This document shows positions 8,103-35,993 of a stretch of DNA of 64,000 nt, in pieces. Numbering within the stretch: the first letter of the stretch is position 1; every line of letters begins with the position of its first letter. The translations under genes were made by a program, and so were the position numbers. The stretch is taken from NCBI RefSeq assembly GCF_030384885.1, contig NZ_CP128615.1. The stretch is one strand, 5' to 3'. Source of the stretch: Escherichia coli. Its GTDB lineage: Bacteria > Pseudomonadota > Gammaproteobacteria > Enterobacterales > Enterobacteriaceae. The notes under the pieces were generated by a model that did no database searches, was not told where the DNA came from, and saw nothing but the letters and a program-made list of their open reading frames with translations.

Positions 8103-8224
8103 ATATGTAAAAAAAGAATGTTTTATCAAATGTAACATATTTTCTTTTTTGTGCATGTATCTACCATAATCAAAGTAAATATATGCTTTGTATGTTGTTG
8201 ATTCGAATTAAATAATTTCCGACA

Positions 8225-8425: not shown

Positions 8426-8528
8426 AATTAATCATTGCGGTTGATTTATTCTCAAGTTGAACTTAAAGAAATCATGCTTATGTAAATATACTATTAAAAG
8501 ACAAAAAGAAGCCATTTAACCTGGAGGA

Positions 8529-9224: not shown

Positions 9225-9865
9225 CTGCTACTCTAAAATAAAACAACACATGGGAGACTGTCTATTATTATTAATAACGAGTAACATTTGTTATTGCCAT
9301 TTATGGTGCTCCCGGGATCAGTTTTAACCATAAGCAAGAAAATGTTTCTTTGAACGGTTAGACATCACAAATGAGCGTCTGCCAAAAGTTGATGTAGCGC
9401 TTGCGGAATGTGTTGAGATTATATAGGGAAAGAACTACGGGGAATTATTATTGCCAGGCTTTCTCCTATGAATTTTAGCCATATCAATAGACCTTTGCTC
9501 TCAGTAACGCAAAGAGAGCATCTTTACTGATTGAAGGTAGTCAAGCGACATATGGTCACTTATTTTCTCATGTGTCGCTTGACACTATCCTGAAGTTTTT
9601 TAAGTCGATTTACGTCACCCAAAATGAAAAACTCCTTTGCATGAGTATTCATAATAATATCACAATGGTAAAGCTACATGACAGACATCTTAACTTAGTC
9701 AAGAGAGTACATAACAACTTTGCTATTACATATATTCAGGGTTGTTTGTAGTGGTTCACAAAATCAGGACACTGGAATAACCTGTTTCCACTTTTCTTCA
9801 TGTAAGCAAGGCGATAAACCACCATTGTTTGTATGAGGTCGATAAACGTTGTAATAACAATTTAT

Positions 9866-20473: not shown

Positions 20474-21470
20474 CTACAGCTGGTTGTATTTCGCGAACTC
20501 CTTCGCACTCTGTTTGAGGATAATTTTGTAGGAGGAGTTACCCCATGCCGCGCGGGCAGCACTGGAAGCCTTGTCAGAGTCAAAGTCGACGATGTTCTGT
20601 GTGATGGTGATATAGGCACCGGTATGACGGCGGGCGGTACGGTAACCTTTCTCAATAAATTCACCGACCTTGTGATTTTTGAAGTCCAGCAGACGCCAGC
20701 CTTCATCAATGACGTTCAGTTTCTTGAGGTTACGCGGCGTGCGGTACATCCGGTTCTCAATGTAAATGATAAGGCTGAACATCACCGCAACCAGCAGGGA
20801 CGGACGGTCTTCCAGTCCGCCCAGCTCCAGCACCACCATTTTCGCATCATCCCGCAGGGACGGCTCATCGGAGTTGAAATACTGGCCATAAGTGCCGTTA
20901 GCAGTGTACTGGTCAAGCAGCACAATCATTTCGTCCAGACGGCTGCGGATGGTCGGTGACTCGGCATACTGCTCGCTGTCACTGGCGTTTTTCAGGAAAT
21001 CCACCACGTCATCAATACGTGCCCTGTTCTCTTTGGCCAGCCATGATGCCCTGACTGCCTGCAGCAGCAGACCTTCATGCACTTCATCCAGGTTACCGTT
21101 GGGGCTGGCCATCACCGACAGCTGGTCGCGGACACGCTCCGCTGACTGGTCAATATCGGTGATGTTCGCAAACGGGTTAAAGCGCAGGGTTTCACCGTCC
21201 AGATATACGCCCCCCATGTTCTCACACAGGGACTTGTAGCCATCCCCCATGTCGAACACCACGGCAAAGCCCCCGGAGTCCAGCACGCTGCGGATAAGTG
21301 GCTGTATCAGCCCGGTTTTACCGGCCCCGGAGGTGCCACAGACCGCCATGTTATAGTTGGTGTTATTCATCCCCCGGAAGAAAATATCGATAAACGCCAG
21401 CTGGTTACGGTAGGTGGGTGCCAGCAGACCTGCCGGTGTCAGGGGGTTATCCGCCACTACCCCAGATGTC
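20474..21470 (-). pseudogene. traC: Internal fragment of an F-type conjugative ATPase TraC (VirB4 family)
   Basis: Walker A-containing segment NMAVCGTSGAGKTGLIQPL and surrounding sequence recognised as TraC-like; both ends of the protein missing, no other tra genes in the window. Confidence 0.5.
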
Positions 21471-21884
21471 ACACCAGTCACCTCTTTTTGCGGTGAAATG
21501 CACAGTGATGATTTCCCTGACATCATCCGGTAATCCTTCCCAGCGACGCTGTCCAGTACCGCTCTGCAGCCAGAGTTTATGCAGCATCAGGCAGTTTTGC
21601 TCATCCAGCAGTACACCGTCCTGCAGGTATGTCAGCCAGCGGGTGAACGCGATATTCTCCGGCGATACAACGCCACGCCCGGCAGCCGTCAGTCCGGGGC
21701 ATGGTTCAAACCGCACATCTTCAGTGGTCTGCAGAAGTCCGGCACTTCCGGCCAGAAACAGCTGAATACCTTCATTTGTGGCGCGGCGATAAAGCGGTGT
21801 GACTGCACCGCTGGCCAGTCGTTTAATCTCAGCAATCTGTGCCGGTTCACCAGAAAAATGCATACGATTTGAGCACCAGTTTGG
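21447..21884 (-). CDS. Hypothetical protein
   Basis: ORF with GGAG RBS before the ATG at 21884 (MPNWCSNRMHF...); overlaps the TraC fragment by about 80 bp. Confidence 0.4.
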   Translation of the reverse strand, partial: PNWCSNRMHFSGEPAQIAEIKRLASGAVTPLYRRATNEGIQLFLAGSAGLLQTTEDVRFEPCPGLTAAGRGVVSPENIAFTRWLTYLQDGVLLDEQNCLMLHKLWLQSGTGQRRWEGLPDDVREIITVHFTAKRGDWCDIWGSGG

Positions 21885-22241
21885 CATGGGAATTCTCCTC
21901 TCACATGCGGCCTCTATCAGGCCGTGCCGCACCTGTAACCGGGCGACCGCATACGAATGCAGGTGCGGCCCCGAAGCCGCAGCGCGTGGAGGAGGAACGA
22001 CGAAACGTGACCGGGTGAGGAGGCCGGCGACAGCGACACACTTGCATCGGATGCAGCTCGGTTAACGTGCCGGCACGGCCTGGGTAACCAGGTATTTTAT
22101 TCACAGAACCGTGCGCAAAATGCTGTGGATAAGCTGGACACAGCAGTCCACAGCAGGCATACAGCCACACCCTCAGAGAATTGAGCGTTTTTTAGTCACA
22201 ATAATGACATTTGACTGTGTGTGGATTCAGTTATTAGAATA

Positions 22242-22257
22242 CTGTATATACATACAG
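22242..22257. promoter_or_regulatory. LexA (SOS) box upstream of impC
   Basis: CTGTATATACATACAG matches CTGT-N8-ACAG; TTGACT -35-like hexamer at 22211. Confidence 0.65.
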
Positions 22258-22280
22258 CAATAGAAAAGGGAGATGAGAAC

Positions 22281-22529
22281 ATGATCCGCATTGAAATTCT
22301 TTTCGACCGCCAGAGCACAAAAAACCTCAAATCAGGCACACTTCAGGCGCTACAGAATGAAATCGAACAACGTCTGAAACCACACTCCCCGGAAATCTGG
22401 CTGCGTATAGACCAGGGCAGCGCCCCGTCTGTATCTGTCACAGGAGCCCGCAACGACAAGGATAAAGAACGTATCATGTCTCTGCTGGAAGAAATCTGGC
22501 AGGACGACAGCTGGCTGCCTGCAGCATGA
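22281..22529 (+). CDS. impC: ImpC (DinI-like small SOS protein)
   Basis: 82-aa ORF from the ATG at 22281 with GGGAGA RBS; first gene of an imp/umu-type operon. Confidence 0.75.
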   Translation: MIRIEILFDRQSTKNLKSGTLQALQNEIEQRLKPHSPEIWLRIDQGSAPSVSVTGARNDKDKERIMSLLEEIWQDDSWLPAA

Positions 22530-22963
22530 GTACCGTTTATCACCGTCCGGCTGACCCTTCAGGCGATGACAGTTACGTGCGACCGTTGTTTGCCGATCGT
22601 TGCCAGGCCGGTTTTCCTTCGCCTGCCACTGATTATGCTGAGCAGGAACTGGATCTGAACAGCTATTGCATCAGCAGACCTGCAGCCACCTTCTTTCTGC
22701 GCGCCAGCGGTGAATCGATGAACCAGGCTGGCGTGCAGAATGGTGATCTGCTGGTAGTGGACAGGGCCGAGAAACCACAACACGGGGACATCGTTATCGC
22801 TGAGATCGACGGTGAGTTCACCGTCAAACGACTGCTGTTGCGCCCACGCCCGGCACTGGAGCCGGTTTCAGACAGCCCGGAATTTCGCACACTGTATCCG
22901 GAAAACATCTGTATTTTTGGTGTTGTCACTCACGTGATACACAGGACGCGGGAGTTACGCTGA
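22526..22963 (+). CDS. impA: ImpA/UmuD-like protein (LexA-type S24 peptidase)
   Basis: 145-aa ORF with Ser/Lys self-cleavage region (GESMNQAG...VKRL); 4-bp overlaps with both neighbours. Confidence 0.85.
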   Translation: MSTVYHRPADPSGDDSYVRPLFADRCQAGFPSPATDYAEQELDLNSYCISRPAATFFLRASGESMNQAGVQNGDLLVVDRAEKPQHGDIVIAEIDGEFTVKRLLLRPRPALEPVSDSPEFRTLYPENICIFGVVTHVIHRTRELR

Positions 22964-24233
22964 TGTTTGCACTGGCTGATATCAACAGTTTCTACGCCTC
23001 ATGTGAAAAAGTTTTCCGCCCGGACCTTCGCAACGAACCGGTCATCGTACTCAGCAATAACGATGGCTGTGTGATCGCGCGCAGCCGGAGGCAAAAGCCC
23101 TTGGCATCAGAATGGGGCAGCCCTGGTTTCAGGTGAGACAGATGCGCCTGGAGAAGAAAATACATGTATTTTCCAGCAATTATGCGCTGTACCACAGCAT
23201 GAGCCAACGGGTCATGGCTGTTCTGGAGTCGCTTTCTCCCGCAGTTGAGCCCTACTCAATTGATGAAATGTTCATTGATTTGCGGGGGATAAATCATTGC
23301 ATCTCTCCGGAGGTTTTTGGTCATCAGCTCAGGGAACAGGTAAAGAGCTGGACAGGACTCACCATGGGGGTGGGCATTGCGCCTACAAAAACGCTGGCTA
23401 AAAGTGCACAGTGGGCAACAAAGCAATGGCCACAGTTTTCCGGTGTGGTCGCGCTGGAGGCAGAAAACCGTAATCGGATCTTGAAGCTACTGGGGCTGCA
23501 GCCAGTTGGTGAGGTCTGGGGAGTAGGACGCAGACTGACGGAAAAGCTGAATGCGCTGGGTATTAACACAGCACTGCAGCTGGCGCAGGCTAACACGGCA
23601 TTCATCCGGAAAAACTTCAGCATCATTCTTGAGCGTACGGTACGCGAACTCAACGGCGAGTCCTGCATATCCCTGGAAGAAGCACCACCGGCAAAACAGC
23701 AGATTGTCTGTAGTCGCAGTTTTGGTGAACGAATCACAGACAAAGATGCCATGCACCAGGCTGTTGTTCAGTATGCAGAGCGGGCCGCAGAGAAACTACG
23801 TGGGGAGCGTCAGTATTGCCGGCAGGTGACGACATTTGTACGGACATCCCCCTTTGCAGTAAAAGAACCCTGTTACAGCAATGCCGCTGTGGAAAAGCTT
23901 CCATTACCCACACAGGACAGCCGGGACATTATTGCCGCAGCATGCAGAGCGTTAAACCATGTCTGGCGTGAAGGGTACCGCTATATGAAGGCAGGAGTCA
24001 TGCTGGCTGATTTCACACCATCGGGTATAGCGCAGCCGGGATTATTTGATGAGATCCAGCCCCGTAAAAACAGCGAAAAGTTAATGAAAACACTCGATGA
24101 ACTGAACCAGTCTGGAAAAGGGAAAGTGTGGTTTGCGGGGCGAGGAACCGCCCCTGAATGGCAAATGAAACGGGAAATGCTCTCGCCTTCGTATACAACA
24201 CAATGGACTGAGATCCCCATTGCTTCATTCTGA
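22963..24233 (+). pseudogene. impB: ImpB/UmuC-like Y-family polymerase, interrupted by a 1-nt frameshift near 23086
   Basis: N-terminal 57 codons (MFALADINSFYASCEKVFRPDL...NDGCVIARS) in one frame stop at 23136; the rest (MGQPWFQ...) continues in another frame from 23112. Confidence 0.8.
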
Positions 24234-24237
24234 TATA

Positions 24238-24666
24238 TCAGAATAATTTTTGCATTTTAAGGCGCACATCATTCATTGCCTCCTGCACCGAATCAGTAGC
24301 AGAAGGAGGCATTTTTTCAGCAGATTGCAAAGCACCGAGTTCAGTCAACACAGCTCTGATATCGGCCTGAGAAGGCTTCCATCCTGTCGTCTGACTGAGT
24401 AAGGTTACAACCTGATCTGCTGAAAACTCCTCGCTCAAAATGGCAGTCAGCAATACAGGCAGGCGAGGATCAAGTTGGTGTAACGCCATTCCAGAAATAA
24501 ATGCATTCCGGAACAGCTCACCACGCTCAGAACGCGGAACGGACTCTATCGCTTCCAAAGCTTGAAAGTCTGCAGCTTTTTCCGGATGCAGATAAAGTGT
24601 GAATTTTTTCCTTTTCCGTTCATCGTCCACAATATTACTCCTCTTTGAAAGCCGCGATAGCTTCAA
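24238..24666 (-). CDS. ParR/StbB-like partition adaptor (type II system)
   Basis: Small ORF directly downstream of the ParM-like gene; assignment by position and size. Confidence 0.5.
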   Translation of the reverse strand: MKLSRLSKRSNIVDDERKRKKFTLYLHPEKAADFQALEAIESVPRSERGELFRNAFISGMALHQLDPRLPVLLTAILSEEFSADQVVTLLSQTTGWKPSQADIRAVLTELGALQSAEKMPPSATDSVQEAMNDVRLKMQKLF

Positions 24667-25606
24667 CCAGTGCTGTCTGTGGCGACTCCATCATCACTAC
24701 TTTTTGCCCAAGATGGTGCCATGCCGTTTTTATCGAATCATAGATCAACGGGGCCCCACCACCGACAACATAAACACGATTCACATGATGAAAATCACCG
24801 AGCTCATTGACTACTTGCTCCCCCAGACTGGCAATAGCCCCCTCAATGGTATTAAGGACCAGATCAGTTTTTGTTTCGTCATTTATAACCTGCCGAACAA
24901 AGTCCGGGTCATTACGACGTTTAATCAATTCATCTGCAACGAGGAAACTGGTATCACTGGATGCCATGCGCAATGCACTCATTGCAGCTTTCGTAACTGA
25001 AGACACACCAATGCCAGAATTACCATGAATGGCACTTACAGAGTCAAATTGACCAACGATAACACCAACATCAAGCGTAGTGCCGCCAATATCAACTACC
25101 AGCGATTTTTCGAACTGACCAACTTTATCCATGACCAGACGAGAAAACACAGCTGGCAATGATTCAGGCATCACATCAACGTGTTCAATGGTGAAAACAT
25201 CGCCTTTATTAAGACGAATCGGCCTCATTAAATTCTCAATTTTACGCTGAATGTTGAGTTCATTTTTTTGACACTCTTTCGTGTAGAACTCACTGATAGG
25301 CAAAGTCACAGTCAATGATACAGGCTGAGGCGCTAATCCACTATTCAGTAAAGCGTGATGCACAGCTAACAGGTTAACATCCGTATATTGATACTCAATA
25401 TGAGTCGTAAGAATAGATTGGTTGCTAACTTCATCATACGTGTATTTTTTACCATCCAGTTCATAGTTAAATGTCTGGCGAATCCCTAACCCGTCAACCT
25501 TCCATCCATGACGAAATGAGTTTTGCGACAACGACTTACAGATTTTCCCATTGTCATTCCATGCCAACTTGATTGTTGTTGAACCATCATCGCAGTATAC
25601 GTTCAT
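24635..25606 (-). CDS. ParM/StbA-like actin-type partition ATPase
   Basis: 323-aa ORF with actin-fold phosphate motifs (CDDGSTTIKLAW, VVDIGGTTLDVGV, YVVGGGAPL). Confidence 0.8.
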   Translation of the reverse strand: MNVYCDDGSTTIKLAWNDNGKICKSLSQNSFRHGWKVDGLGIRQTFNYELDGKKYTYDEVSNQSILTTHIEYQYTDVNLLAVHHALLNSGLAPQPVSLTVTLPISEFYTKECQKNELNIQRKIENLMRPIRLNKGDVFTIEHVDVMPESLPAVFSRLVMDKVGQFEKSLVVDIGGTTLDVGVIVGQFDSVSAIHGNSGIGVSSVTKAAMSALRMASSDTSFLVADELIKRRNDPDFVRQVINDETKTDLVLNTIEGAIASLGEQVVNELGDFHHVNRVYVVGGGAPLIYDSIKTAWHHLGQKVVMMESPQTALVEAIAAFKEE

Positions 25607-25609
25607 CTA

Positions 25610-25830
25610 TAGCCCCTTAAATACTCAATCTGAGTAAATCACTGTTTCTGGTTGCAAGGTAATACTCAATTTGAGCACTATCATAGTTATGAAATCACAA
25701 AACACAAGTAATATTTATTACATCATATGACATACTTCATATTTCATACTTCATAAATATGAATGCATGTTGACACATCAGGTTACAGTGTCAAAATATC
25801 ATCATACTTCACACATCACATTTATGAGGT
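25610..25830. promoter_or_regulatory. Divergent intergenic region with direct repeats; candidate centromere/promoter for both partition operons
   Basis: Repeated CATACTTCAT / TACTCAATTTGAG motifs between divergently transcribed partition genes. Confidence 0.4.
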
Positions 25831-25834
25831 TGCA

Positions 25835-26479
25835 ATGATTACTGTAGTTGGTGGGAACAAAGGTGGTTCAGGGAAAACTACCATTGCATCAAACCTGGCT
25901 ATTGCTCTCGCAAATAAAGGAAGGGAAGTCTGCCTGTTAAACGGAGATCTACAACGAACAGCCGCAAAACATCATGCGGAACGAGAAGCTGCAGGACTGT
26001 TACCAGCAATAACCCTTGTTGAGAAATTTGATAACCTGACACAAACACTACAGGCTCTGAATGAAAAGTTCGATGATGTAATAGTGGATGTCGCAGGAAG
26101 AAACTCAAAGGAATTCATAACGAGTGGAGTTGTCGCACATCAAATAATTGCGCCACTACAGTGTTCTCAACCAGATCTGGATACTCTTACAGAACTAGAA
26201 CAACAGATAGACGCAATGCGTAACCTTAACCCGGAACTTAAGGTTTATTGTTTACAAAGTATGGCAACAACCAATCCGGTTTTGAGGGGAAATGAGAGAA
26301 AAGAATTCCTTGAATATCTTGAAGAATTCCCAACAATTCAAGTCCTGGATTCAGTTATTTGTTTCAGAAAAGTCTATCGCGATTGCATGAGCAACGGCAC
26401 CGGTGTAGTAGAAACGAACAATACAGCAGCCAGAGCAGAAATTGAACATTTAATGAATGAGGTATTTGGCCCATGGTGA
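25835..26479 (+). CDS. parA: ParA-family partition ATPase (small ParF-like, type Ib)
   Basis: Deviant Walker A VVGGNKGGSGKTT at the N-terminus; start taken at the ATG at 25835 after a GAGG RBS. Confidence 0.8.
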   Translation: MITVVGGNKGGSGKTTIASNLAIALANKGREVCLLNGDLQRTAAKHHAEREAAGLLPAITLVEKFDNLTQTLQALNEKFDDVIVDVAGRNSKEFITSGVVAHQIIAPLQCSQPDLDTLTELEQQIDAMRNLNPELKVYCLQSMATTNPVLRGNERKEFLEYLEEFPTIQVLDSVICFRKVYRDCMSNGTGVVETNNTAARAEIEHLMNEVFGPW

Positions 26480-26748
26480 AGAAACCCAGCCAGCAAGCAT
26501 TAAACAGAGCTGCAGTTACGGTAGAACAAGCAGAGGCTCTGGCTCAGCGCCTTGCGGATAAACCATACGGCGCGCCGGAAAAACTCGAACCAGAAAAACA
26601 ATGTCGGACGACAATCTCTCTTGGTGAAAGCATGCTTGTCACAATAGAAGATCTGGCATTGAGGAATAAACGCAATGGTAAAGATCCAAAAAATGTAAGT
26701 GCCATCGTCAGAGTAGCCCTTGAGCAATACTTAAAAACACTAACGTAA
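26473..26748 (+). CDS. Small ParG-like DNA-binding partner of ParA (likely RHH)
   Basis: 91-aa ORF overlapping the parA stop; C-terminal AIVRVALEQYLK. Confidence 0.5.
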   Translation: MVKKPSQQALNRAAVTVEQAEALAQRLADKPYGAPEKLEPEKQCRTTISLGESMLVTIEDLALRNKRNGKDPKNVSAIVRVALEQYLKTLT

Positions 26749-26885
26749 TAATCAAGAAGTTATTACTTATGAAATCACACTTGTGAATTCACACTGTTTA
26801 AGCACCCTTGCATACAAGAGATCACATATTGCAGTGGTCTCTTCTTTTATAGAATAAATCACAATTCATAATTATGATTTGTGAC

Positions 26886-27677
26886 TTATGCGTGTCTGTT
26901 TTTCAGCATTGTGACAGCATCGGACTCAGGCATCGAAAACTGCACCCGGTGCCGTGCAGCCACATCCAGCGCAAACACCTTCGTGTACACCTCTGTCGAA
27001 CTAATCGACTTGTGCCCCATCAGGCTCTGCAGCACCTTCAGCGGAATACCAGCATACAGCATATGCATCGCGTAGGAATGGCGGAAAGTATGTGGGGTAA
27101 CCGGAACAGAGAACGTCACGCCGTCGGCCGCAGCGGCCTCTACAGCTTCATTCAGCCAGGTGCGAACTGTGCGGTCGGTGATTCCCCAGATGCGCGCCTT
27201 CTCCATTCTTCCGGTTCGTTTGTTTCTGCGCTCCAGTGGGATTTTCAGCGTGGCCACCATCATCTGCAGTTGGCTGACGTATTGTGTATCGGACAGGGGA
27301 ACCAGGCGATGCACCTGACTGCCAGCAGGGACACGGCCTGCCGTTCTGGTCGCTTTTTCAGTCCGTTGTTTGAGCGTGGCCAGCTGTACGAACGGATATG
27401 GCGGCGCCAGAGAAAAATCTCCCCGCGTCAGCGCCAGCGCTTCGTTTATACGTGCGCCCGTGTTCCACAGGGTGGCCAGCAACATTTTGCGGTGCAGATC
27501 CGGTACATAGTGGAGCAGGGCGCTGATCTCCGGCGCCAACAGATATTTTGGTAATTCGTCCTGCACAAGTGCCATCTGACGTAGTGCCAGCGCAGCCGGG
27601 TAATCAATGGCAACAGGTAATGTTGCCGGAGGCGTTAAAAAAGAACCTGGCAGGGAAAGCAATTGTGGGCCACTCAT
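26886..27677 (-). CDS. Tyrosine site-specific recombinase (candidate multimer resolvase)
   Basis: 263-aa ORF with HTFRHSYAMH...LMGH...Y catalytic region; paralog of int at 1263-2003. Confidence 0.8.
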   Translation of the reverse strand: MSGPQLLSLPGSFLTPPATLPVAIDYPAALALRQMALVQDELPKYLLAPEISALLHYVPDLHRKMLLATLWNTGARINEALALTRGDFSLAPPYPFVQLATLKQRTEKATRTAGRVPAGSQVHRLVPLSDTQYVSQLQMMVATLKIPLERRNKRTGRMEKARIWGITDRTVRTWLNEAVEAAAADGVTFSVPVTPHTFRHSYAMHMLYAGIPLKVLQSLMGHKSISSTEVYTKVFALDVAARHRVQFSMPESDAVTMLKNRHA

Positions 27678-28105
27678 GATGTCCCCTTTATGAAATCCTC
27701 AATCTCTTGCTCGGTCTTTTTAGACTTCTTTACCATTTCGTACTCCTTTTGGAGTGTTTTACCTCTGGCTTTCAACAATACCAACCTCGTTGGCGATAGT
27801 GTATCGGAAAGGCCGTGCAGAGGGAGGCCACATAACATTCTCAGTTCTCGTGATAACCGCAGTGCTTTTACTCCCAACATAGCTGCGTTTTTATGCAAAC
27901 TATATTCACCCGCTCCACCATAAGGAGTATCTTCAACAAACACATTATCTACACACACGACAGCTTCGTAGCTGAGAACAGAGAGTTCGCTGAGCCTATA
28001 CATCAGGCCAGAAGGAAGGGAGCGCCAGTTACCAGATACCGGGGAATAATCGATTTCCGGTAATAAGAACTCAGCTTCTCCTCTGCCATCCTGATCGTGC
28101 TCCAC
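27674..28105 (-). pseudogene. Gene of unknown function, N-terminus truncated by IS26
   Basis: ORF reads across the IS26 left inverted repeat at 28106; 4-bp overlap with the recombinase start. Confidence 0.5.
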
Positions 28106-28927
28106 AGGGCACTGTTGCAAATAGTCGGTGGTGATAAACTTATCATCCCCTTTTACTGATGGAGCTGCACATGAACCCATTCAAAGGCCGGTATTTTCAG
28201 CGTGACATCATTCTGTGGGCCGTACGCTGGTACTGCAAATACGGCATCAGTTACCGTGAGCTGCAGGAGATGCTGGCTGAACGCGGAGTGAATGTCGATC
28301 ACTCCACGATTTACCGCTGGGTTCAGCGTTATGCGCCTGAAATGGAAAAACGGCTGCGCTGGTACTGGCGTAACCCTTCCGATCTTTGCCCGTGGCACAT
28401 GGATGAAACCTACGTGAAGGTCAATGGCCGCTGGGCGTATCTGTACCGGGCCGTCGACAGCCGGGGCCGCACTGTCGATTTTTATCTCTCCTCCCGTCGT
28501 AACAGCAAAGCTGCATACCGGTTTCTGGGTAAAATCCTCAACAACGTGAAGAAGTGGCAGATCCCGCGATTCATCAACACGGATAAAGCGCCCGCCTATG
28601 GTCGCGCGCTTGCTCTGCTCAAACGCGAAGGCCGGTGCCCGTCTGACGTTGAACACCGACAGATTAAGTACCGGAACAACGTGATTGAATGCGATCATGG
28701 CAAACTGAAACGGATAATCGACGCCACGCTGGGATTTAAATCCATGAAGACGGCTTACGCCACCATCAAAGGTATTGAGGTGATGCGTGCACTACGCAAA
28801 GGCCAGGCCTCAGCATTTTATTATGGTGATCCCCTGGGCGAAATGCGCCTGGTAAGCAGAGTTTTTGAAATGTAAGGCCTTTGAATAAGACAAAAGGCTG
28901 CCTCATCGCTAACTTTGCAACAGTGCC
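28106..28927 (+). mobile_element. IS26, no flanking target-site duplication
   Basis: Terminal repeats GGCACTGTTGCAAA (28106) and TTTGCAACAGTGCC (ends about 28927); flanks CTCCACAG versus CCACCCAT. Confidence 0.95.
28171..28875 (+). CDS. tnpA: IS26 transposase Tnp26
   Basis: MNPFKGRYFQRDIILWAVRWYCKYGISYRELQEM... recognised. Confidence 0.95.
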   Translation: MNPFKGRYFQRDIILWAVRWYCKYGISYRELQEMLAERGVNVDHSTIYRWVQRYAPEMEKRLRWYWRNPSDLCPWHMDETYVKVNGRWAYLYRAVDSRGRTVDFYLSSRRNSKAAYRFLGKILNNVKKWQIPRFINTDKAPAYGRALALLKREGRCPSDVEHRQIKYRNNVIECDHGKLKRIIDATLGFKSMKTAYATIKGIEVMRALRKGQASAFYYGDPLGEMRLVSRVFEM

Positions 28928-29454
28928 CCACCCATCTGTTTGTGTCGGTACTCTGAGGGGGCATGGGGCAAAAACCTGAAAAAGGTATTCGCCTGGCTGC
29001 CCCGCTCCGGGCGAAAATGAAGGTACAGCGACGGGATGAATAGCACTTTTTGCTAAAGGAATATCAACAATAGCATGCTATAGTTACTTTAATGGGTAGC
29101 TGCGCCATTGACAATGGTGTGGTTTTCTGTTAACATTACTTTCATAGTATTGTTCCGTCCCGCTCCACTCCAACAAATCCGTTTATTTCCCGCCAGACCG
29201 GTTATCACCATTCCGGCCCGGATTTTTTTGGATTTTTTTCCGGGGAGCACCCGGGACGAGCTTAAAATCGGTATGACAGACAGGAGGATGCGAATGAACA
29301 CATCATAGCAGAATTGAAAGAGAAAACATTCTGTACGGTATCAACAGCGTTCACGTGTGTGAGGCGCCGGGTGCCTTTTATCTGAAAAAAGAGGTCAAGA
29401 AGATGATCAAGATTAACACATCAGTGTTAACAACAACCTGCCCAGGAGGGCTTT

Positions 29455-29799
29455 ATGAAAAATTTGTTCGACACCGAGGGAACGGTTCTATTCCCATTCC
29501 AGACTGAAATCCATTTTATCTGGACGATTTACACCACAGCTAAAACCCTTTACGTCAGTGCCTGTGGGCACATCGGACAGAAGCAATACTGGAGCGCCTG
29601 TCTCTGTATTTTGCTTCTTATGGCCTACGTGGGTCTCTGTGCTGCGGTGGTCTGGGCTGTAGTGCCCTGGCTTAAGGCCTTTATTGTGTCGAAATTTGCG
29701 GTTTCAGCACTCTGGGTCACGCCAGTAAAGAGTTTGTTGCTCAGGGGTATCGGTAAGATGGTGGGGGCCATCTGCCGAAAGTTTACTCTATTAAAGTAA
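29455..29799 (+). CDS. Hypothetical membrane protein
   Basis: 114-aa ORF with AGGAGGG RBS and two hydrophobic helices. Confidence 0.4.
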   Translation: MKNLFDTEGTVLFPFQTEIHFIWTIYTTAKTLYVSACGHIGQKQYWSACLCILLLMAYVGLCAAVVWAVVPWLKAFIVSKFAVSALWVTPVKSLLLRGIGKMVGAICRKFTLLK

Positions 29800-29972
29800 G
29801 AGCAGCAAGCTACACCAACGGATGGTGAATGTCAACAGGCATTCACCATCTCCTTACGGCGGTGGTCCCTGTGGCCACTGCCGCTTTCGCGCGGGTGTAA
29901 CACGGCAAAACTCCTCTGTACAACAGGGGCTCCCGCCGTCATTTTCCGGCACAGGTGAGGCCGGAATTGGAA

Positions 29973-30974
29973 CTAAAACGTAAACCGCGGGCCTGTCCGG
30001 TAGCGTTCACTATCGGCCAGCATTCTCTCAACCAGAGAGAAATCCTTTTCACCGCAGAACACGTACTGCTCCGCGAACTCCACCTGCAGGGCGTTGTAAT
30101 GCGTGACATGATCCGGGGTAAGCGGCATGAAAAGATAGTCCGTATACCTCCGGATATGTTCCAGTCTTTCAAAAGGCCGAATGTGACGGGGGATAAGATG
30201 CGGCGCTCTGGCAAGCAGATTGTGAAGATGCTGCTTTTGACGAATCATCTGTTCACGGATGGAGGGGCAATACATGGCCAGCATCAGCGTCGATGACAGG
30301 GGGAGGTAAATCTGTATCCCGCGAACGGCCAGACCAAGATTACCGTACGGACCGAAGTCATTGCTGTTCTTAAGCACGACGGGATTGTCTGATACGTAAA
30401 ACGGACTTTCTGGCCTGGTTTCCAGAAGGTACCAGTCCTTTTTCAGCAGGTGATCAATATGTGACATCTGCTGGACGAGCTGCCGCAGAAAAATATCCTT
30501 GGTATCGCCCCCGGACGACAGGCCCAGGGTTTCCAGGGCCTGCTCTTTAGTCGAGCCGATTGCCTCCATCTTATCGGTGAGCACCGAAATCATGCCTGAG
30601 ATACGCTCCAGTTCGCCGAAGGTTCGTGCGCGCTGCACGGCAACAAACACGGCCAGCCTGTAGCGTTCGTCATCTGTCAGCCTGCGAATATCCCTGTGCG
30701 CCAGCAGGGCTGCAATTACCGGTGCCGCGTGGTGCTCGTAAATCCCCAGCAGTGGTTCAAGACTCAGACGGTCCGGGTGATTTTCGAGGTTGTAGAACGT
30801 GTTGCGGACGGTTGCATCATCCGGCGTGGTGGCATAGGCGCGCCCTGCAGCCTTGTCAAAGGCGTATAAACGCTGACGCTTACCCTTTCCCGGCGTACTG
30901 AAATGCTTCAGTAAAAAACGGGGAACCGTATGCTGTCTGACCACATCGGTCTGCAGATTGACTGAATCGGCCAT
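29973..30974 (-). CDS. DUF4238-like protein (candidate defence-island gene)
   Basis: Start taken at the ATG at 30974 with GGAGA RBS; N-terminal HTVPRFLLKHF resembles the H-x-V/I-P-x-F-Y/L-L-K/R-x-F signature I associate with DUF4238. Confidence 0.45.
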   Translation of the reverse strand: MADSVNLQTDVVRQHTVPRFLLKHFSTPGKGKRQRLYAFDKAAGRAYATTPDDATVRNTFYNLENHPDRLSLEPLLGIYEHHAAPVIAALLAHRDIRRLTDDERYRLAVFVAVQRARTFGELERISGMISVLTDKMEAIGSTKEQALETLGLSSGGDTKDIFLRQLVQQMSHIDHLLKKDWYLLETRPESPFYVSDNPVVLKNSNDFGPYGNLGLAVRGIQIYLPLSSTLMLAMYCPSIREQMIRQKQHLHNLLARAPHLIPRHIRPFERLEHIRRYTDYLFMPLTPDHVTHYNALQVEFAEQYVFCGEKDFSLVERMLADSERYRTGPRFTF

Positions 30975-31179
30975 AACTTTATCTCCCTGAAAAGCCACGC
31001 AGGCGCACCGGTGCATCTGTATTGACGGCATGGGCAGCTGGTTTGCGGCATAACATTAGAAAACAGAACCGTTCGATAATACCTGTGTTTAACACCCTGT
31101 CAGTACTGATGAAATTTAAATCTCCGATTATAGCTTTTTTCGGATCTCAGCAGAAAAAAGACAGAAGTGTGTATAGGTT

Positions 31180-31270
31180 TGGCATATGCGTACCCCTGCC
31201 ATCTGCATATGCTATATCTATACATATGCCGATCATCTGCATATACTGAGCATATGTATAAAGGCCGGTC
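31180..31270. promoter_or_regulatory. vapBC-1 promoter/operator repeats
   Basis: Repeated CATCTGCATAT / GCATATG motifs upstream of vapB. Confidence 0.45.
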
Positions 31271-31285
31271 GGCCAGGAGGAAATA

Positions 31286-31516
31286 ATGAGAACCGTATCC
31301 ATTTTTAAAAACGGCAATAACCGCGCCATCCGTCTGCCCCGCGATCTTGATTTTGAGGGGGTGAGCGAGCTGGAGATCGTCCGGGAAGGGGACAGCATCA
31401 TCCTACGCCCCGTCCGGCCGACCTGGGGCTCGTTCGCGAAGCTCGAAAAAGCTGACCCGGACTTTATGGCGGAGCGCGAGGACGTTGTCACCGACGAAGG
31501 ACGGGTTAACCTGTGA
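31286..31516 (+). CDS. vapB: VapB antitoxin (AbrB/SpoVT fold), copy 1
   Basis: 76-aa ORF MRTVSIFKNGNNRAIRLPRDLDFEG...; 4-bp overlap with vapC. Confidence 0.85.
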   Translation: MRTVSIFKNGNNRAIRLPRDLDFEGVSELEIVREGDSIILRPVRPTWGSFAKLEKADPDFMAEREDVVTDEGRVNL

Positions 31517-31929
31517 ACAAAACGTATATGCTGGACACCAACATCTGCTCTTTCATCATGCGCGAGCAGCCGGAAGCCGTCCTGAAGCGCCTGGAGCAGG
31601 CGGTGCTGCGTGGCCACCGTATCGTGGTCTCGGCCATCACTTATTCCGAAATGCGCTTCGGGGCTACCGGCCCGAAGGCCTCGCCGCGCCACGTGCAGCT
31701 GGTTGACGCGTTCTGCACCCGCCTCGATGCCATCCTGCCCTGGGATCGCGCCGCGGTGGACGCGACCACGGAGATTAAGGTGGCGCTGCGCCTCGCCGGG
31801 ACGCCGATCGGCCCGAACGACACGGCGATTGCCGGACACTCCATCGCCGCCGGTGCCGTGCTGGTGACGAATAATACGCGGGAATTTGAACGGGTACCGG
31901 GTCTTGTGCTGGAAGACTGGATAAGATAA
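31513..31929 (+). CDS. vapC: VapC PIN-domain toxin, copy 1
   Basis: 138-aa ORF with PIN acidic residues (MLDTNICSF, ...TNNTREFERV). Confidence 0.85.
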   Translation: MNKTYMLDTNICSFIMREQPEAVLKRLEQAVLRGHRIVVSAITYSEMRFGATGPKASPRHVQLVDAFCTRLDAILPWDRAAVDATTEIKVALRLAGTPIGPNDTAIAGHSIAAGAVLVTNNTREFERVPGLVLEDWIR

Positions 31930-32002
31930 CGCTGTAAAACAAAACAGGCGGTCTGGCGCTGCCGGACACTCTTTCAGTCAGCGGTATATAAAGGAATAAA
32001 AG

Positions 32003-33565
32003 ATGCCTCTGATCACGCGGCTTATGCTGCAAAACTTTAAAAAGTTTCCGGAACTGGACCTGCGCTTCACTCATGACCGTAACATTCTGGTCGGGGATAA
32101 TGAGTCCGGGAAAAGCACGATTCTGCTGGCCCTTGACCTTGTGCTGAGCGACAGCCGGCACCGGGTCGAGGCATTGGGTGTGGAATCGCTCCTGTCCCAG
32201 TCAGCAGTCAGGCAGTTTCAGGAAGGTGAGCGCCGCGCCGATCGGTTACCCGTGCTGACAGCTGATGTTTTCCTGAGTAATGGGGGAGATCCTGACCTGA
32301 ACGGCAGGCAAAATCTGGCGGGTATCGATGCGGATGGTCTCAGAATGCGCATTGCACCCATGACGGAGGAATACGGTCAGGATATACATCATGTCCTGCA
32401 GCAGGATCCCGATAATTTTCCCTATGAATACTATTCCGTGCGGTTCAGCACCTTCTCCGGGGGGCATTTTGCCGGCTTCAGACGCTATCTGCGCCATCTG
32501 CTGTTAGACAGTGCACGCATCGATAACGAGCACGCCGCACAGGAATATACGCGCACAGTTTACAGCGTCAATGTGCCGGTAGCCGATCGGTACCGGCTTG
32601 AAAACAGTTACCGGCAACAGAAAATGCACTTCTGCACCCGGCATCTGTCAGCCATAAACGACACGCTGGATACGTATCAGTTTGGCGTGCGTTCCGGTGC
32701 TAAATCAGGTCTTGAGGCGAATCTGGACATTACCGAGGACGGTATTTCCATTCGTCACCGTGGAAAAGGAAGGCAGTGCTTCATCAAAACAGAGTTTGCA
32801 CTGCAGCGGCATCAGCAGCAGGGAGAGCTCCACGCACTGTTGCTTGAGGAGCCGGAGAATCATCTCAGCCATGTCAGTATGAAGAGGCTGGTTAATCAGC
32901 TTGCAACTGAACGGCAGACGCAGGTGTTTATTGCCACACACAGCAGCCATATCTCATCCCGCCTCGATCTGCGTAAGGCAATCCTCCTCGGGTCTGCCCG
33001 ACCGGTACTGATGAATGAACTTTCCGCTGAGACTGCCGCCTTCTTCATGAAAGCACCGGACAATAATGTGCTGGAATTTGCGCTGGCCAGACGTGTGCTG
33101 CTCGTGGAGGGGGATGCTGAGTTTATTCTGATCGAGGCCTTTTATCGCCGCCTGTATGGCAGGTCGCCGGAGGATGACGGGGTTCACATCATCGCTATCG
33201 GCGGAACGAGTTTCCGTCGTTATCTTGAACTGGCCCGTCTTCTGGAAAATCGCGTCGCGGCCCTTCGTGATAATGACGGCAACTATCAGCAAAACTGCGA
33301 TGAACGCTATGCTGACGTGCTTTGTTCCCGCTCCCGGGTATTTGCTGATCGCGATAACACCCGATCCACATTTGAAATCTGCCTGTATCAGGATAACGCT
33401 GGTCTGTGTGATGCGCTTTTCCGCGGAACACGCCGGACACTCACGGTGCAGGAATACATGCTGGCCAATAAGGCAGAAGCAGCATTCCGGCTGTTACAGC
33501 TGCACGCCGAAGAGCTGACAGTACCTGATTATATTCAGGAGGCACTGGCATGGATAAGAGAGTGA
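32003..33565 (+). CDS. OLD-family ATPase/TOPRIM nuclease (GajA-like)
   Basis: Walker A GDNESGKST, Walker B-like LLLEEPENH, H-loop IATHSSH, TOPRIM-like LLVEGDAEF and ALRDNDG. Confidence 0.65.
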   Translation: MPLITRLMLQNFKKFPELDLRFTHDRNILVGDNESGKSTILLALDLVLSDSRHRVEALGVESLLSQSAVRQFQEGERRADRLPVLTADVFLSNGGDPDLNGRQNLAGIDADGLRMRIAPMTEEYGQDIHHVLQQDPDNFPYEYYSVRFSTFSGGHFAGFRRYLRHLLLDSARIDNEHAAQEYTRTVYSVNVPVADRYRLENSYRQQKMHFCTRHLSAINDTLDTYQFGVRSGAKSGLEANLDITEDGISIRHRGKGRQCFIKTEFALQRHQQQGELHALLLEEPENHLSHVSMKRLVNQLATERQTQVFIATHSSHISSRLDLRKAILLGSARPVLMNELSAETAAFFMKAPDNNVLEFALARRVLLVEGDAEFILIEAFYRRLYGRSPEDDGVHIIAIGGTSFRRYLELARLLENRVAALRDNDGNYQQNCDERYADVLCSRSRVFADRDNTRSTFEICLYQDNAGLCDALFRGTRRTLTVQEYMLANKAEAAFRLLQLHAEELTVPDYIQEALAWIRE

Positions 33566-34572
33566 TATTTGCGGTTGCCGGCTCGGGCAAGACCACGCTG
33601 CTGATACAGCGGTTGAGTGAGGACCGGCGGACGCTGATCCTGACCTTCACCGTGAATAATGAAGCGCATCTCCGGGCGCAGATTATCAGACGTTTTGGCT
33701 TTATCCCGGACGGGATCAGGGTGATGACCTGGTTTGAGTTTCTGCACGGTTTTTGCTTCAGGCCTTTCCTGCAGGAGCAGCTGGCATCGCGTGGGCTGAG
33801 CTTCGACCAGCCCCCACCCAGAATACCGCGCACGAATGCCCGGCATTATCAGGATCCCGCCGGACGGCTGTATCACCGGAGGCTCGCACACTTACTCACA
33901 GCCCGGGGGCTGCTGCCAGATATCCGTACCCGGCTTGCCCGTTACTACGATGAACTGCTTGTCGATGAAGTCCAGGACTTTGCCGGACATGACTTTAATT
34001 TTCTGCTGGAGCTCTGCCGCGCGGAAATCACTGTGCTCTGTTGCGGCGATTTTTATCAACATACCTTTGATACAAGCCATGACGGCAACGTTAATTCAAC
34101 GCTGCACGATGACATTACGCGATATGAGGCCCGCTTCGACGCAGCAGGTTTCACGGTTGACCGGGACACGCTCAACCGGACATGGCGTTGCTCAGCTTCA
34201 GTGTGCGAGTTTATCACCGGACAACTGAACATCCGTATCGCTGCCCATGGGATACATGCCACCCTGATTGAAACGATCACAGATGCAGAGCGCACAGCCA
34301 CCCTGCACGCCGATAATACGGTGATTAAGCTCTTCTATCGTGAACATCACCGTTACGGCTGCTATTCCATGAACTGGGGCGTCAGTAAAGGGCTCGACCA
34401 CTTTCAGGATGTCTGCATTGTGATGGGATCTTCCCACTGGAAGCTTCTGACCCGTCAGGAACTGGCAGCCCTTCCACCGTCGTCCCGTAACAGGCTGTAC
34501 GTGGCATGCTCACGGGCGCGCGGCAACATTTATTTTGTTCCCGAAATTCATCTGCGCCGATTCCGGAACTGA
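33550..34572 (+). CDS. Compact SF1/UvrD-like helicase (GajB-like)
   Basis: Motifs AVAGSGKTT (I), LLVDEVQD (II), GDFYQ (III), YVACSRAR (VI); 16-bp overlap with the upstream nuclease gene. Confidence 0.6.
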   Translation: MDKRVIFAVAGSGKTTLLIQRLSEDRRTLILTFTVNNEAHLRAQIIRRFGFIPDGIRVMTWFEFLHGFCFRPFLQEQLASRGLSFDQPPPRIPRTNARHYQDPAGRLYHRRLAHLLTARGLLPDIRTRLARYYDELLVDEVQDFAGHDFNFLLELCRAEITVLCCGDFYQHTFDTSHDGNVNSTLHDDITRYEARFDAAGFTVDRDTLNRTWRCSASVCEFITGQLNIRIAAHGIHATLIETITDAERTATLHADNTVIKLFYREHHRYGCYSMNWGVSKGLDHFQDVCIVMGSSHWKLLTRQELAALPPSSRNRLYVACSRARGNIYFVPEIHLRRFRN

Positions 34573-34861
34573 GTCAGCTGCTTCTCAGTCGGGCACAATT
34601 CAGAAATAAAGCTGTATGGCCAACGATGTCACTTCAGGCTGGAAAAGTGCGGATCCGGTTTTGCCTTTTTTCGGATCTGAGCGGGAAAAGTGAGAAACCA
34701 ACATAGGTGTAACATATCCATATGCCGGGCATCTGCATAGGCAAAGCATACGCATATACCTACCATCTGCATATGTAACACCTATACAAGCCGGGCTTGC
34801 AGGCATATACTTCACCTATGCGGGAATACTCCCTGGCACACTCAGCATATGAGGAAAAACC

Positions 34862-35092
34862 ATGCGCACAGTTTCGATATTTAAAAACGGCAATAACCGC
34901 GCCATCCGTCTGCCCCGGGACCTGGATTTTGATGGCGTCAGCGAGCTGGAGATCGTCCGGGAAGGGGACAGCATCATTCTGCGTCCCGTCCGGCCGACCT
35001 GGGGCTCGTTCGCGCAGCTGGACAGGGCCGATCCGGACTTTATGGCGGAGCGTGAGGATGTGGTCAGCGATGAAGGACGCTTTGAGCCATGA
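34862..35092 (+). CDS. vapB: VapB antitoxin, copy 2 (diverged paralog)
   Basis: 76-aa ORF MRTVSIFKNGNNRAIRLPRDLDFDG...; own CATCTGCATAT operator repeats upstream (about 34700-34850). Confidence 0.85.
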   Translation: MRTVSIFKNGNNRAIRLPRDLDFDGVSELEIVREGDSIILRPVRPTWGSFAQLDRADPDFMAEREDVVSDEGRFEP

Positions 35093-35505
35093 AGAAAACC
35101 TGGATGCTCGACACCAACATCTGCTCGTTCATCATGCGCGAGCAGCCGGCAGCGGTGCTGAAGCGCCTGGAGCAGGCGGTGCTGCGCGGTGATCGCATTG
35201 TGGTCTCGGCCGTGACGTATGCCGAGATGCGCTTCGGCGCCACCGGCCCGAAGGCCTCGCCGCGCCATATTCAGCTGGTCGACGCGTTCTGCGCGCGCCT
35301 CGATGCCGTCCTGCCCTGGGACCGCGCCGCGGTGGACGCCACGACGGACATCCGGGTGGCGCTGCGCCTAGCCGGGACGCCGATCGGCCCGAATGACACG
35401 GCCATTGCCGGGCACGCCATCGCGGCGGGCGCCATCCTGGTGACGAACAATGTGAGAGAGTTTGCGCGGGTCCCGGGCCTGGTGCTGGAAGACTGGGTGA
35501 AATAA
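35089..35505 (+). CDS. vapC: VapC PIN-domain toxin, copy 2
   Basis: 138-aa ORF, clear paralog of copy 1. Confidence 0.85.
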   Translation: MKKTWMLDTNICSFIMREQPAAVLKRLEQAVLRGDRIVVSAVTYAEMRFGATGPKASPRHIQLVDAFCARLDAVLPWDRAAVDATTDIRVALRLAGTPIGPNDTAIAGHAIAAGAILVTNNVREFARVPGLVLEDWVK

Positions 35506-35546: not shown

Positions 35547-35608
35547 GGCTTTGTTGAATAAATCGAACTTTTGCTGAGTTGAAGGATCAGATCACGCATC
35601 CTCCCGAC
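35547..35608 (+). mobile_element. 62-bp IS903-group left-end remnant
   Basis: GGCTTTGTTGAATAAATCGAACTTTTGCTGAGTTGAAGGATCAGATCACGCATCCTCCCGAC identical to the left end of the full copy at 55903. Confidence 0.75.
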
Positions 35609-35708
35609 TGGATTTGCCCCTATATTTCCAGACACCTGTTATCACTTAATGGAGTGACCCCGAGCCCGTAGACAAATCTGCCCTATAGTTTGAGCATAGG
35701 AGGAGTCT

Positions 35709-35993
35709 ATGGGCACATCACGTTTTACCCCTGAATTTAAGGAAGAGGCCGTCCGCCAGATCACCGAGCGGGGCTATTCTATTGCTGAAGTATCTGAACG
35801 GCTCGGCGTGTCGGCGCACAGCCTATATAAATGGCTCCGGGCTGTTAAGCCTGACAACAGTGGACAGCAGGCACAGGATTTACTGGATGCCAGAACAGAA
35901 ATTCTCAGGCTGAAAGCACAGCTTAAACGCACTGAGGAAGAGCGGGATATTCTGAAAAAGGCAGCGCGGTACTTTGCAAGGGAGCCCGACTGA
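35709..35993 (+). CDS. IS3-family OrfA
   Basis: 94-aa HTH protein MGTSRFTPEFKEEAVRQITERGYSIAEVSERLGVS... Confidence 0.7.
   Translation: MGTSRFTPEFKEEAVRQITERGYSIAEVSERLGVSAHSLYKWLRAVKPDNSGQQAQDLLDARTEILRLKAQLKRTEEERDILKKAARYFAREPD

Follow-up and report, generated by a model that had tools for sequence, protein, structure and literature searches.

The only IS26 element in the 64-kb stretch of Escherichia coli plasmid DNA analysed here, which is referred to below as the window, lies between the remains of two different genes and is not bordered by a target site duplication. Comparison with related plasmids indicates that this arrangement probably arose from one ancestral insertion, which was followed by intramolecular copy-in transposition of the resident IS26, i.e. 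by an adjacent deletion. The left junction of the element is old and widespread, and the right junction is rare. The event affected an operon that encodes a ResD-like recombinase and the adjoining end of a phage-defence island.

Boundaries and sequence of the IS26 element

The insertion sequence was delimited with exact ends to 820 bp (28108..28927, plus strand). Its terminal repeats are intact, as had been stated in the initial annotation of this DNA: the left inverted repeat of 14 bp, GGCACTGTTGCAAA (28108..28121, plus strand), is an exact match, and the right one (28914..28927, minus strand) is its perfect complement. These two sites are the only matches to the 14-bp sequence in the window, where 0.02 matches would be expected by chance. 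The transposase ORF of 234 aa (28171..28875, plus strand) matched the NCBIfam model NF033587 (transpos_IS6) with an E-value of 2.6e-81 and a score of 272 bits, the cut-off of this model being 125. Additional IS26 copies, for which a check had been proposed, were found neither elsewhere in the window, which covers 64 kb of a replicon that may carry further copies outside it, nor in pRHB41-C14_2, a plasmid that is described below.

Copies that are 100% identical to the element exist in the databases, and 5000 records match it with an identity of 99% or more. It is a three-SNP variant that differs from the majority IS26 sequence. In comparison with the copy in p1658/97 there are 3 differences in 820 bp, and the variant bases are A at IS position 48 (window position 28155), T at position 85 (28192) and A at position 614 (28721). 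The change at position 48 is non-coding, and the transposase of the variant differs from that of p1658/97 by H8Y and G184D. Exactly this transposase protein is present on 487 contigs.

An 8-bp target site duplication is the signature left when an IS inserts by simple copy-in, and it belongs to the insertion event, not to the element. Around the IS of the window it is absent: the left flank CTCCACAG (28100..28107), a conserved junction that is common to more than 100 plasmids, and the right flank CCACCCAT (28928..28935), a rare junction and the presumed target site of the deletion event, match at 4/8 positions. That the flanks are unlike had been noted before, and no matching duplication came to light at the exact boundaries. 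The absence of a duplication is predicted by the deletion model.

The truncated gene on the left and the chimeric reading frame

To the left, the element abuts the 3′ remnant of a 229-aa gene (434 nt, codons 87-229 and the stop codon; 27674..28107, minus strand). The uninterrupted gene, which the initial annotation had proposed to look for in related plasmids, is full-length in pTB201. The minus-strand ORF at 27674-28105 had been described as running into the IS26 end without a start codon. It is indeed truncated by the IS end, but the frame remains open across this end up to an ATG at 28180. The result is a chimeric ORF of 168 aa (27674..28180, minus strand), in which 25 codons from the left end of IS26 precede the remnant of the 229-aa gene. 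It is represented in RefSeq as a hypothetical protein (WP_001505085.1), and exact copies of the 168-aa sequence occur on at least 1000 contigs. A promoter-like site was not found upstream of the predicted chimeric ORF. At its other end, the remnant overlaps the start of the recombinase gene by 4 bp, and the 229-aa gene is translationally coupled to the recombinase.

The full-length 229-aa protein matches the PADLOC candidate PDC-S67 (E-value 1.2e-17, residues 34-210), while Pfam and NCBIfam gave no match, and all of its homologues (266/266) are labelled 'hypothetical'. Its AlphaFold model (pLDDT 76.7) is helical with an N-terminal membrane-like helix, and a fold search of this model against the PDB returned no match (best E-value 0.65). 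No mention of PDC-S67 was found in the literature. The linkage of the 229-aa gene to the recombinase is conserved, which suggests that the PDC-S67 label may reflect the neighbourhood only.

Uninterrupted relatives and the lost DNA

To the right, the element is followed by the 3′-terminal 29 nt of an 84-aa ORF (WP_000678528.1; 28928..28956, plus strand), the other 226 nt of which are deleted. In pTB201, this ORF is located at L003 8775-9029 and the right flank of the window begins at L003 9001, while the left site is at L003 1588; both sites are colinear with the window and share its orientation, with a gap of 7,412 bp between them. This layout is common to four plasmids. In the simpler layout of pSE11-1 and pRHB37, the order is unchanged and the flank sites are separated by about 2.4 kb; here, in pSE11-1 and pRHB37-C22_2, the right site lies 1.34 kb beyond an rfsF-like repeat.

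Since both flanks are colinear, and separated by a gap, in the uninterrupted relatives, DNA was lost between the ends that are now joined by the IS. A deletion of sequence between the recombinase operon and the defence island had been suspected from the window itself; the colinear, gapped relatives support the deletion, but the word "between" turned out to be too narrow. As judged from these relatives, the deletion also extended over two-thirds of the operon, counted from its 5′ end, and over the first two genes of the island. Of the 229-aa gene, codons 1-86 are missing, and the 116-aa gene is gone altogether, together with a promoter/oriV1-like block and the rfsF-like site proximal to the operon. 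A 308-aa ORF and all but 29 nt of the 84-aa ORF were lost as well. Starting from an ancestor with the simple layout, the lost segment would have comprised about 2.4 kb, whereas a pTB201-like ancestor would imply a loss of 7.4 kb.

Distribution of the two junctions

The left junction was detected in 119 PLSDB records, in 103 records from 101 complete E. coli genomes and on 13 metagenome contigs, which doubled as positive control for the scan for the ancestor. The right junction of the window was found in one other plasmid only, pRHB41-C14_2, which is the only complete plasmid with both junctions of the window, originates from a different study, was assembled independently and contains one IS26. 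The colinearity of the window and pRHB41-C14_2 does not extend beyond a segment of about 13.7 kb that surrounds the junction, so that the window is not this plasmid itself. Because the sharing is limited to this length, the segment has moved between plasmid backbones since the event.

These data also bear on the idea that the unlike flanks reflect a simple insertion whose 8-bp duplication was later erased by mutation, or a misassembly in which a collapsed repeat brought together two IS26-adjacent contigs. Assemblies classically break at IS26 copies, and most metagenome contigs that contain the left junction stop within the IS. However, the flanks agree at only half of their positions, the outer DNA belongs to two different genes that are located 2.4-7.4 kb apart in uninterrupted plasmids, and the same double junction around a single IS26 recurs in the independently assembled pRHB41-C14_2, so that both variants of this explanation are very improbable.

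At the fixed left junction, the right flanks of different plasmids form a nested, colinear series. In pRHB11-C13_2 and three others 41 bp are lost, in p2_STEC346 the loss amounts to 251 bp, the junction of the window is shared with pRHB41-C14_2, and in pDETEC81 and four others the deletion reaches 2,131 bp further than the junction of the window. Two further right flanks are non-colinear. At this left junction, 7 other plasmid loci, which represent six different right flanks, carry an IS with 0 differences from that of the window.

Probable adjacent deletion by the resident IS26

In the proposed course of events, the variant IS would have inserted once in an ancestral plasmid, at CTCCACAG within the 229-aa gene, and the predicted ancestor would carry the IS between two copies of CTCCACAG, with the join TTTGCAACAGTGCC+CTCCACAGTTGCTG. 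Later, in the lineage of the window, the resident IS would have attacked CCACCCAT in the 84-aa ORF, a few kb away on the same molecule, by copy-in (replicative) intramolecular transposition in the orientation that gives a deletion. One IS copy would stay at the original left junction and now abut the new target, and the intervening DNA would leave as a non-replicating circle, a translocatable unit (TU), with the second IS copy. The expected outcome would be an intact IS without target duplication and a deletion on one side only. The recombinase ORF is kept in the window, without a recognisable promoter upstream.

In the adjacent deletion described for IS26 by Harmer, Hall and co-workers, a TU is formed, one IS remains and the target site duplication is split between the two products (PMC9602291). 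The window agrees with this process in its single intact IS, in the absent duplication, in having one conserved and one variable flank, in the colinearity of the flanks with an uninterrupted reference and in the nested deletions that start from one IS end. It differs in that neither the excised circle nor the duplication-bearing ancestor was seen and in that no resistance gene is involved, the lost and adjoining cargo consisting of plasmid maintenance and phage defence functions; nothing essential differs.

The predicted ancestor with the IS between two CTCCACAG copies was not found in PLSDB, which was searched with a constructed junction probe, nor in JGI metagenomes and GTDB representative genomes, which were searched with a degenerate pattern covering both the ancestor and the right junction of the window. 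The assignment of the left junction as the original insertion site therefore rests on parsimony. Likewise, a search for plasmids in which IS26 occupies the right site next to the retained other part of the 84-aa ORF gave no match.

The latter result is relevant for a route via two IS copies, which is considered rather unlikely. Here, a second IS26 in direct orientation would have arrived at CCACCCAT, by its own insertion or by cointegrate formation with another plasmid, and RecA-dependent homologous recombination or the targeted conservative reaction of Tnp26 would have removed the segment or joined parts of two plasmids. IS26 is known to act in this way (PMC9602291), the region is mosaic with the junction segment on different backbones, and other IS26 copies sit in the same locus in p1658/97 and pXJW9B277-F18. 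Moreover, the IS that p1_115106 carries at this left junction is a mosaic with position 614 reverted, so that exchange between IS copies does happen. Loss of the segment by recombination between two copies of the variant in direct repeat would fit the sequence equally well. This route predicts, however, a second IS at the right site with the join GGCGTGGCCACCCAT+GGCACTGTTGCAAA, and IS26 was present at this site in no record except the plasmid with both junctions. In addition, a crossover with a majority IS26 retains the variant bases at positions 48, 85 and 614 only if it falls within the last 206 bp, and the variant is unmixed at all six different right flanks. Finally, a join between plasmids does not predict that both flanks align colinearly to one and the same reference molecule. 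As repeated exchange with the far commoner majority IS26 should produce mosaics, the unmixed variant in the 7 loci supports deletion by the resident IS.

Minor IS26 variants are known from the literature (IS26-v1 to v4 and IS15DI/DII/DIV), and the transposase of IS26-v1 with the exchange G184N has enhanced activity (PMC12540391, PMC9412624). The IS of the window resembles these variants in its length of 820 bp, in the shared inverted repeats and in its 3 nucleotide differences from the majority sequence, and it resembles IS26-v1 in the alteration of codon 184. In contrast to IS26-v1, codon 184 is GAC (Asp) instead of AAC (Asn), and H8Y as well as the non-coding change at position 48 are present in addition. 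A named variant with H8Y/G184D was not found in a literature search, which yielded only general statements on minor variants. Because G184N at the same residue raises transposase activity, G184D could, as a weaker reading by analogy, alter it as well; if so, this could explain the many one-sided deletions from the variant IS.

The recombinase operon and the rfsF-like sites

The tyrosine recombinase gene to the left of the remnant (26886..27677, minus strand) has an intact ORF. Its product is 91% identical over 244 aa to F-plasmid ResD, which is encoded downstream of ccdAB in F, and it matches Phage_integrase with an E-value of 1.2e-18. In relatives with an intact operon, the recombinase gene is preceded by the 116-aa gene and, in the middle, the 229-aa gene, and the block upstream of the operon is homologous to the region of F with rfsF and oriV-1 (PMC4398462). 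In the window, the upstream operon partners and the promoter region are gone, and a consensus scan for promoters that read out of IS26 into the recombinase gene gave no candidate. Lesions of the recombinase, which might point to its pseudogenisation after the event, were seen in some of the loci with the left junction, in a small sample with no baseline; the copy of the window is intact.

The window contains neither the operon-proximal rfsF-like repeat nor the oriV1-like block. The sole rfsF-like inverted repeat that is left is a hybrid one, GATCCG-N14-CGGATC (34652..34677), located at the distal end of the Abi/DUF4238/VapBC/Gabija block and about 7 kb from the recombinase gene; it surfaced with a looser pattern, while stricter patterns gave no match. 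The locus thus shares with the multimer resolution system ccdA-ccdB-resD/rfsF of F the closely similar recombinase and, in intact relatives, the homologous upstream block. It differs from this system in that two unrelated genes, the 116-aa and 229-aa genes, occupy the position of ccdAB, and in that the operon of the window has been decapitated by IS26, with loss of its proximal rfsF-like repeat.

Sites of the rfsF type in this region are recombination switch points (PMC8004404, PMC9412624), and with the hybrid site still present it might be supposed that ResD/rfsF site-specific recombination or another deletion had already removed the DNA before IS26 inserted at the scar. This sequence of events is highly unlikely: both junctions are inside ORFs and neither is at an rfsF-like repeat, a later simple insertion would leave the 8-bp duplication that is absent here, and the left junction also occurs in plasmids in which the loss amounts to only 41 or 251 bp. 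Adjacent deletion by an already resident IS26 is preferred here as well.

The module of rfsF-like repeat, 116-aa gene, 229-aa gene for a putatively membrane-anchored protein and ResD-type recombinase is conserved and occurs on F-type and I-type plasmids of E. coli and as far afield as Pectobacterium. Homology between plasmids switches within the spacer of the rfsF-like repeat, and in pRHB37-C22_2 the Abi/DUF4238/VapBC/Gabija block is bracketed by two rfsF-like repeats, of which the window keeps the distal, hybrid one. Tentatively, the module may therefore be a site-specific capture point at which phage-defence cassettes are swapped. If this is true, deletion of the operon-proximal site and of the partners of the recombinase would have frozen the island of the window.

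Implications

The IS26 event itself represents known and well-described behaviour and is one more example of plasmid remodelling. For annotation, it calls for caution with the 168-aa 'hypothetical protein', which is a chimera across the IS end. The combination of the fixed left junction, the three-SNP variant and a particular right junction provides a lineage marker for the descendants of single events, and such markers also show that a maintenance-plus-defence segment has been transferred from one plasmid backbone to another. The more interesting biology lies in the locus that was hit, a ResD/rfsF-type module flanking a variable phage-defence island, which in the window has lost its promoter, two conserved partner genes and the adjacent recombination site.

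IS26 element and interrupted genes

A single IS26 element was located at 28108-28927 (820 bp end to end) by a terminal-repeat scan and direct reading of 27400-29300. Its left terminal repeat at 28108-28121 (GGCACTGTTGCAAA) is matched by a perfect inverted copy at 28914-28927, which confirms the intact repeats described in the initial annotation, and these are the only two matches to the repeat in 64 kb, where 0.02 are expected by chance. The transposase ORF (28171-28875, 234 aa) belongs to the IS6 family (NF033587, E 2.6e-81), and the whole element is 100% identical to plasmid-database copies. The 8-bp flanks, already noted to differ, are also unlike at the exact boundaries (CTCCACAG on the left, CCACCCAT on the right), and hence there is no target duplication. 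By every membership test the element is IS26; the absent duplication belongs to the event and not to the element.

The left end lies inside a gene for a 229-aa protein, of which the last 143 codons (residues 87-229) remain on the minus strand at 27674-28107, overlapping the start of the recombinase gene by 4 bp. This ORF had been described as running into the IS26 end without a start; the native start is indeed lost, yet the reading frame continues without a stop through the IS end up to an ATG at 28180. The resulting 168-aa chimera corresponds to RefSeq WP_001505085.1, and its exact sequence is present on at least 1000 public contigs. Comparison with related plasmids revealed the uninterrupted gene at full length (WP_000796228.1) in pTB201 (NZ_CP029243.1) and p1658/97. 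The right flank starts 29 nt ahead of the stop codon of an 84-aa ORF (WP_000678528.1), which is missing 226 of its 255 nt.

DNA missing between the flanks

In pTB201 the left and right sites (locus positions 1588 and 9001) keep their strand and order and are separated by 7,412 bp, and this layout was found in four plasmids. The colinear flanks indicate that DNA was lost between the two IS26 ends, as had been proposed for the sequence between the recombinase operon and the defence island. In two other uninterrupted relatives, pSE11-1 and pRHB37-C22_2, a 5-kb HEPN/DUF4238 module is located elsewhere or absent, and the right site lies 1.34 kb past a conserved repeat upstream of the operon; as the left site and that repeat are 1.05 kb apart, no less than about 2.4 kb must have been lost. 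Missing from the window are codons 1-86 of the 229-aa gene, which cover its predicted membrane helix, the 116-aa gene upstream of it, a block of about 400 bp homologous to the pifC-ccdA region of F, which holds rfsF and oriV-1 (PMC4398462), a 308-aa ORF (hyp308) and most of the 84-aa ORF.

Origin of the deletion

IS26 is known to cause adjacent deletions when it transposes by the copy-in route within one molecule; the DNA in between then departs in the form of a translocatable unit, and the two halves of the 8-bp duplication end up on different products (PMC9602291). Here, a resident IS26 would have transposed into a second target on the same molecule; one IS copy would have stayed where it was and come to lie directly against the new target, while the intervening DNA would have been released with its share of the duplication. 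The event agrees with IS26 adjacent deletion in all features that can be tested on sequence, and intramolecular copy-in transposition is considered its probable origin. Since an ancestor with CTCCACAG on both sides of IS26 was not found in PLSDB or in metagenome or representative-genome contigs, the order of events rests on parsimony. That the DNA was lost first and IS26 inserted later is very improbable, as a later insertion would leave a duplication. An assembly artefact or a decayed duplication is just as improbable and in practice excluded, because the same double junction occurs in the independent complete plasmid pRHB41-C14_2.

The main rival, recombination between two directly repeated IS26 copies or an inter-plasmid join at IS26, is rather unlikely. 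A search for further copies returned one IS26 in the window and one in pRHB41-C14_2, and PLSDB has no record of an intermediate in which an IS occupies the right site. The identity of the element also speaks against exchange with ordinary copies, as it is an unmixed three-SNP variant of the majority IS26 (IS positions 48, 85 and 614; window positions 28155, 28192 and 28721), with the transposase changes H8Y and G184D. The p1658/97 copy differs from it at positions 48, 85 and 614, and most database copies have two mismatches to it within the first 250 bp. The full variant sits at this one left junction in all 7 sampled plasmid loci having it, and the exact variant transposase protein is present on 487 public contigs. 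Codon 184 is also altered in IS26-v1, for which enhanced activity was reported (PMC12540391, PMC9412624), but to Asn rather than Asp; no named variant with H8Y/G184D was found in the literature.

Nested right flanks

Among the sampled plasmids having the left junction, the sequence resumes at pTB201 position 1630 in pRHB11-C13_2 and three others (41 bp lost), at 1840 in p2_STEC346 (251 bp lost, ending 5 nt inside the start of the gene), at 9001 in the window and pRHB41-C14_2 (7,412 bp lost on the pTB201 scale), and at window position 31059 in pDETEC81 and four others (a further 2,131 bp lost); four others carry unrelated, non-colinear DNA (rclA; a TIR-protein region). The IS is identical to the window copy over all 820 bp at 7 loci spanning six different right flanks. 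If right flanks had been swapped by recombination with the far commoner majority IS26, mosaics would be expected; only one was seen (p1_115106, position 614 reverted). That the deletions extend to the right calls for no particular cause, since the left side offers only the 434-bp remnant before the recombinase and partition genes and the right side tens of kb of dispensable cargo. The locus is a repeated IS26 target.

Other IS26 copies, of the majority type and the G184N type, are present in p1658/97 and pXJW9B277-F18 (comparison loci L005 and L006, both 3331-4150). They cut into this locus from the other side, with the recombinase removed, the 229-aa gene whole and resistance genes beyond.

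Distribution of the junctions

A 500-bp probe with the left junction at its centre has complete matches in 119 PLSDB plasmids. The left flank plus IS is matched by 103 records, some chromosomal, in 101 of the 5,426 complete E. coli genomes, and a junction 39-mer by 13 metagenome contigs. The right junction was found in one PLSDB plasmid only, pRHB41-C14_2 (CP056975.1), and in none of the complete RefSeq E. coli genomes or the metagenome or representative-genome contigs. Only 21458-35184 of the window is colinear with this plasmid (99.4% identity), which rules out that the window is pRHB41-C14_2 itself and implies that the double junction has travelled inside a segment of about 13.7 kb.

The start of the window (1-2467) holds a RepFIB-type replication gene with 96% identity to pRHB41-C14_2 positions 2-2466; besides this, the two share no more than the 13.7-kb maintenance/defence segment and a piece of 1 kb (within 20475-35184). 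PLSDB and the complete RefSeq E. coli set do not contain the source replicon. A 372-bp unit is repeated four times in tandem at 3945-5360, the copies having 64-96% identity to the first; they lie in a region of which only parts (2-2467 and 5783-9237) align with the autotransporter gene region of pRHB41-C14_2.

Defence island

The defence island reported next to IS26 was substantiated by GajA (32003-33565, E 1.5e-101), a GajB-like helicase of only 340 aa (33550-34572), two vapBC toxin-antitoxin pairs (31281-31580 and 34857-35156, 86% identical) flanking the Gabija genes, an Abi-annotated ORF, a DUF4238 protein and a BREX type 1 system (about 35.2 to 57 kb). Identical 62-bp direct repeats (35547-35608 and 55903-55964), which presumably resemble IS903-group ends, and a 79-bp inverted pair (35704-35782 and 56962-57040) bound a segment of about 20 kb with the BREX genes brxC, pglX, pglZ and brxL; several E. 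coli plasmids match this segment at 98-100% identity.

Recombinase module

The intact tyrosine recombinase (26886-27677, minus strand, 263 aa) is 91% identical to the F-plasmid gene following ccdAB, and is thus a relative of ResD, but its adjacent site is lost. A consensus scan found no sigma-70-like promoter between IS26 and its gene. Comparison of the intact window gene with seven left-junction loci (L001, L014, L015, L022, L025, L028, L029) showed lesions in the latter: pRHB41-C14_2 lacks 1 bp at nt 546, NZ_CP083514.1 has 1 bp inserted at nt 494, codon 98 is a nonsense codon in one metagenome contig, and four loci have a deletion in the 3′-terminal A-run at nt 779. In this small sample without a baseline, these independent lesions are suggestive of decay once the promoter and the partner genes had been lost, but could also be sequencing errors.

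The 229-aa protein has no family or fold match, and its homologues are all annotated as hypothetical; its match to the PADLOC candidate PDC-S67 (E 1.2e-17) may reflect guilt by association. Homologues with 43-51% identity occur in Pectobacterium and another enterobacterium, where a small ORF is again followed by the 229-aa homologue and the tyrosine recombinase, the same inverted repeat is kept upstream and different defence-like cargo lies beyond it, so that the gene seems to belong to the recombinase as a conserved partner and not to the cargo. Across its range from E. coli plasmids to Pectobacterium, the module consists of the inverted repeat, a small ORF, the 229-aa protein with its predicted membrane anchor and a ResD-type recombinase (L030 4232-6890, L032 4285-6550, and L002-L006 upstream of the 116-aa gene); the cargo past the repeat varies (S_4TM+SMODS, Abi_2, MazE/PIN, HEPN, BREX).

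With a looser search pattern, one rfsF-like inverted repeat (GATCCG-N14-CGGATC) was identified at 34652-34677, where it separates the GajB-like gene from the second vapB. The deletion therefore took the operon-proximal site and promoter block but not all rfsF-like sites. The repeat is a hybrid: the left half and its flank match the gajB side of pRHB37-C22_2 and pDETEC81, whereas the right half and its flank match p1658/97 on the rfsF-vapB side. The homology switch falls within the spacer, where a crossover by a tyrosine recombinase would be expected to lie. The hyp308-to-gajB block of pRHB37-C22_2 has one such repeat on either side.

The IS26 event is nothing new in kind, and its left junction is already present in more than 100 sequenced plasmids. 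Homology breakpoints in the repeat spacer, together with comments in the literature about rfsF being a switch point (PMC8004404, PMC9412624), suggest that the ResD/rfsF-type module may act as a site-specific exchange point for defence cassettes.
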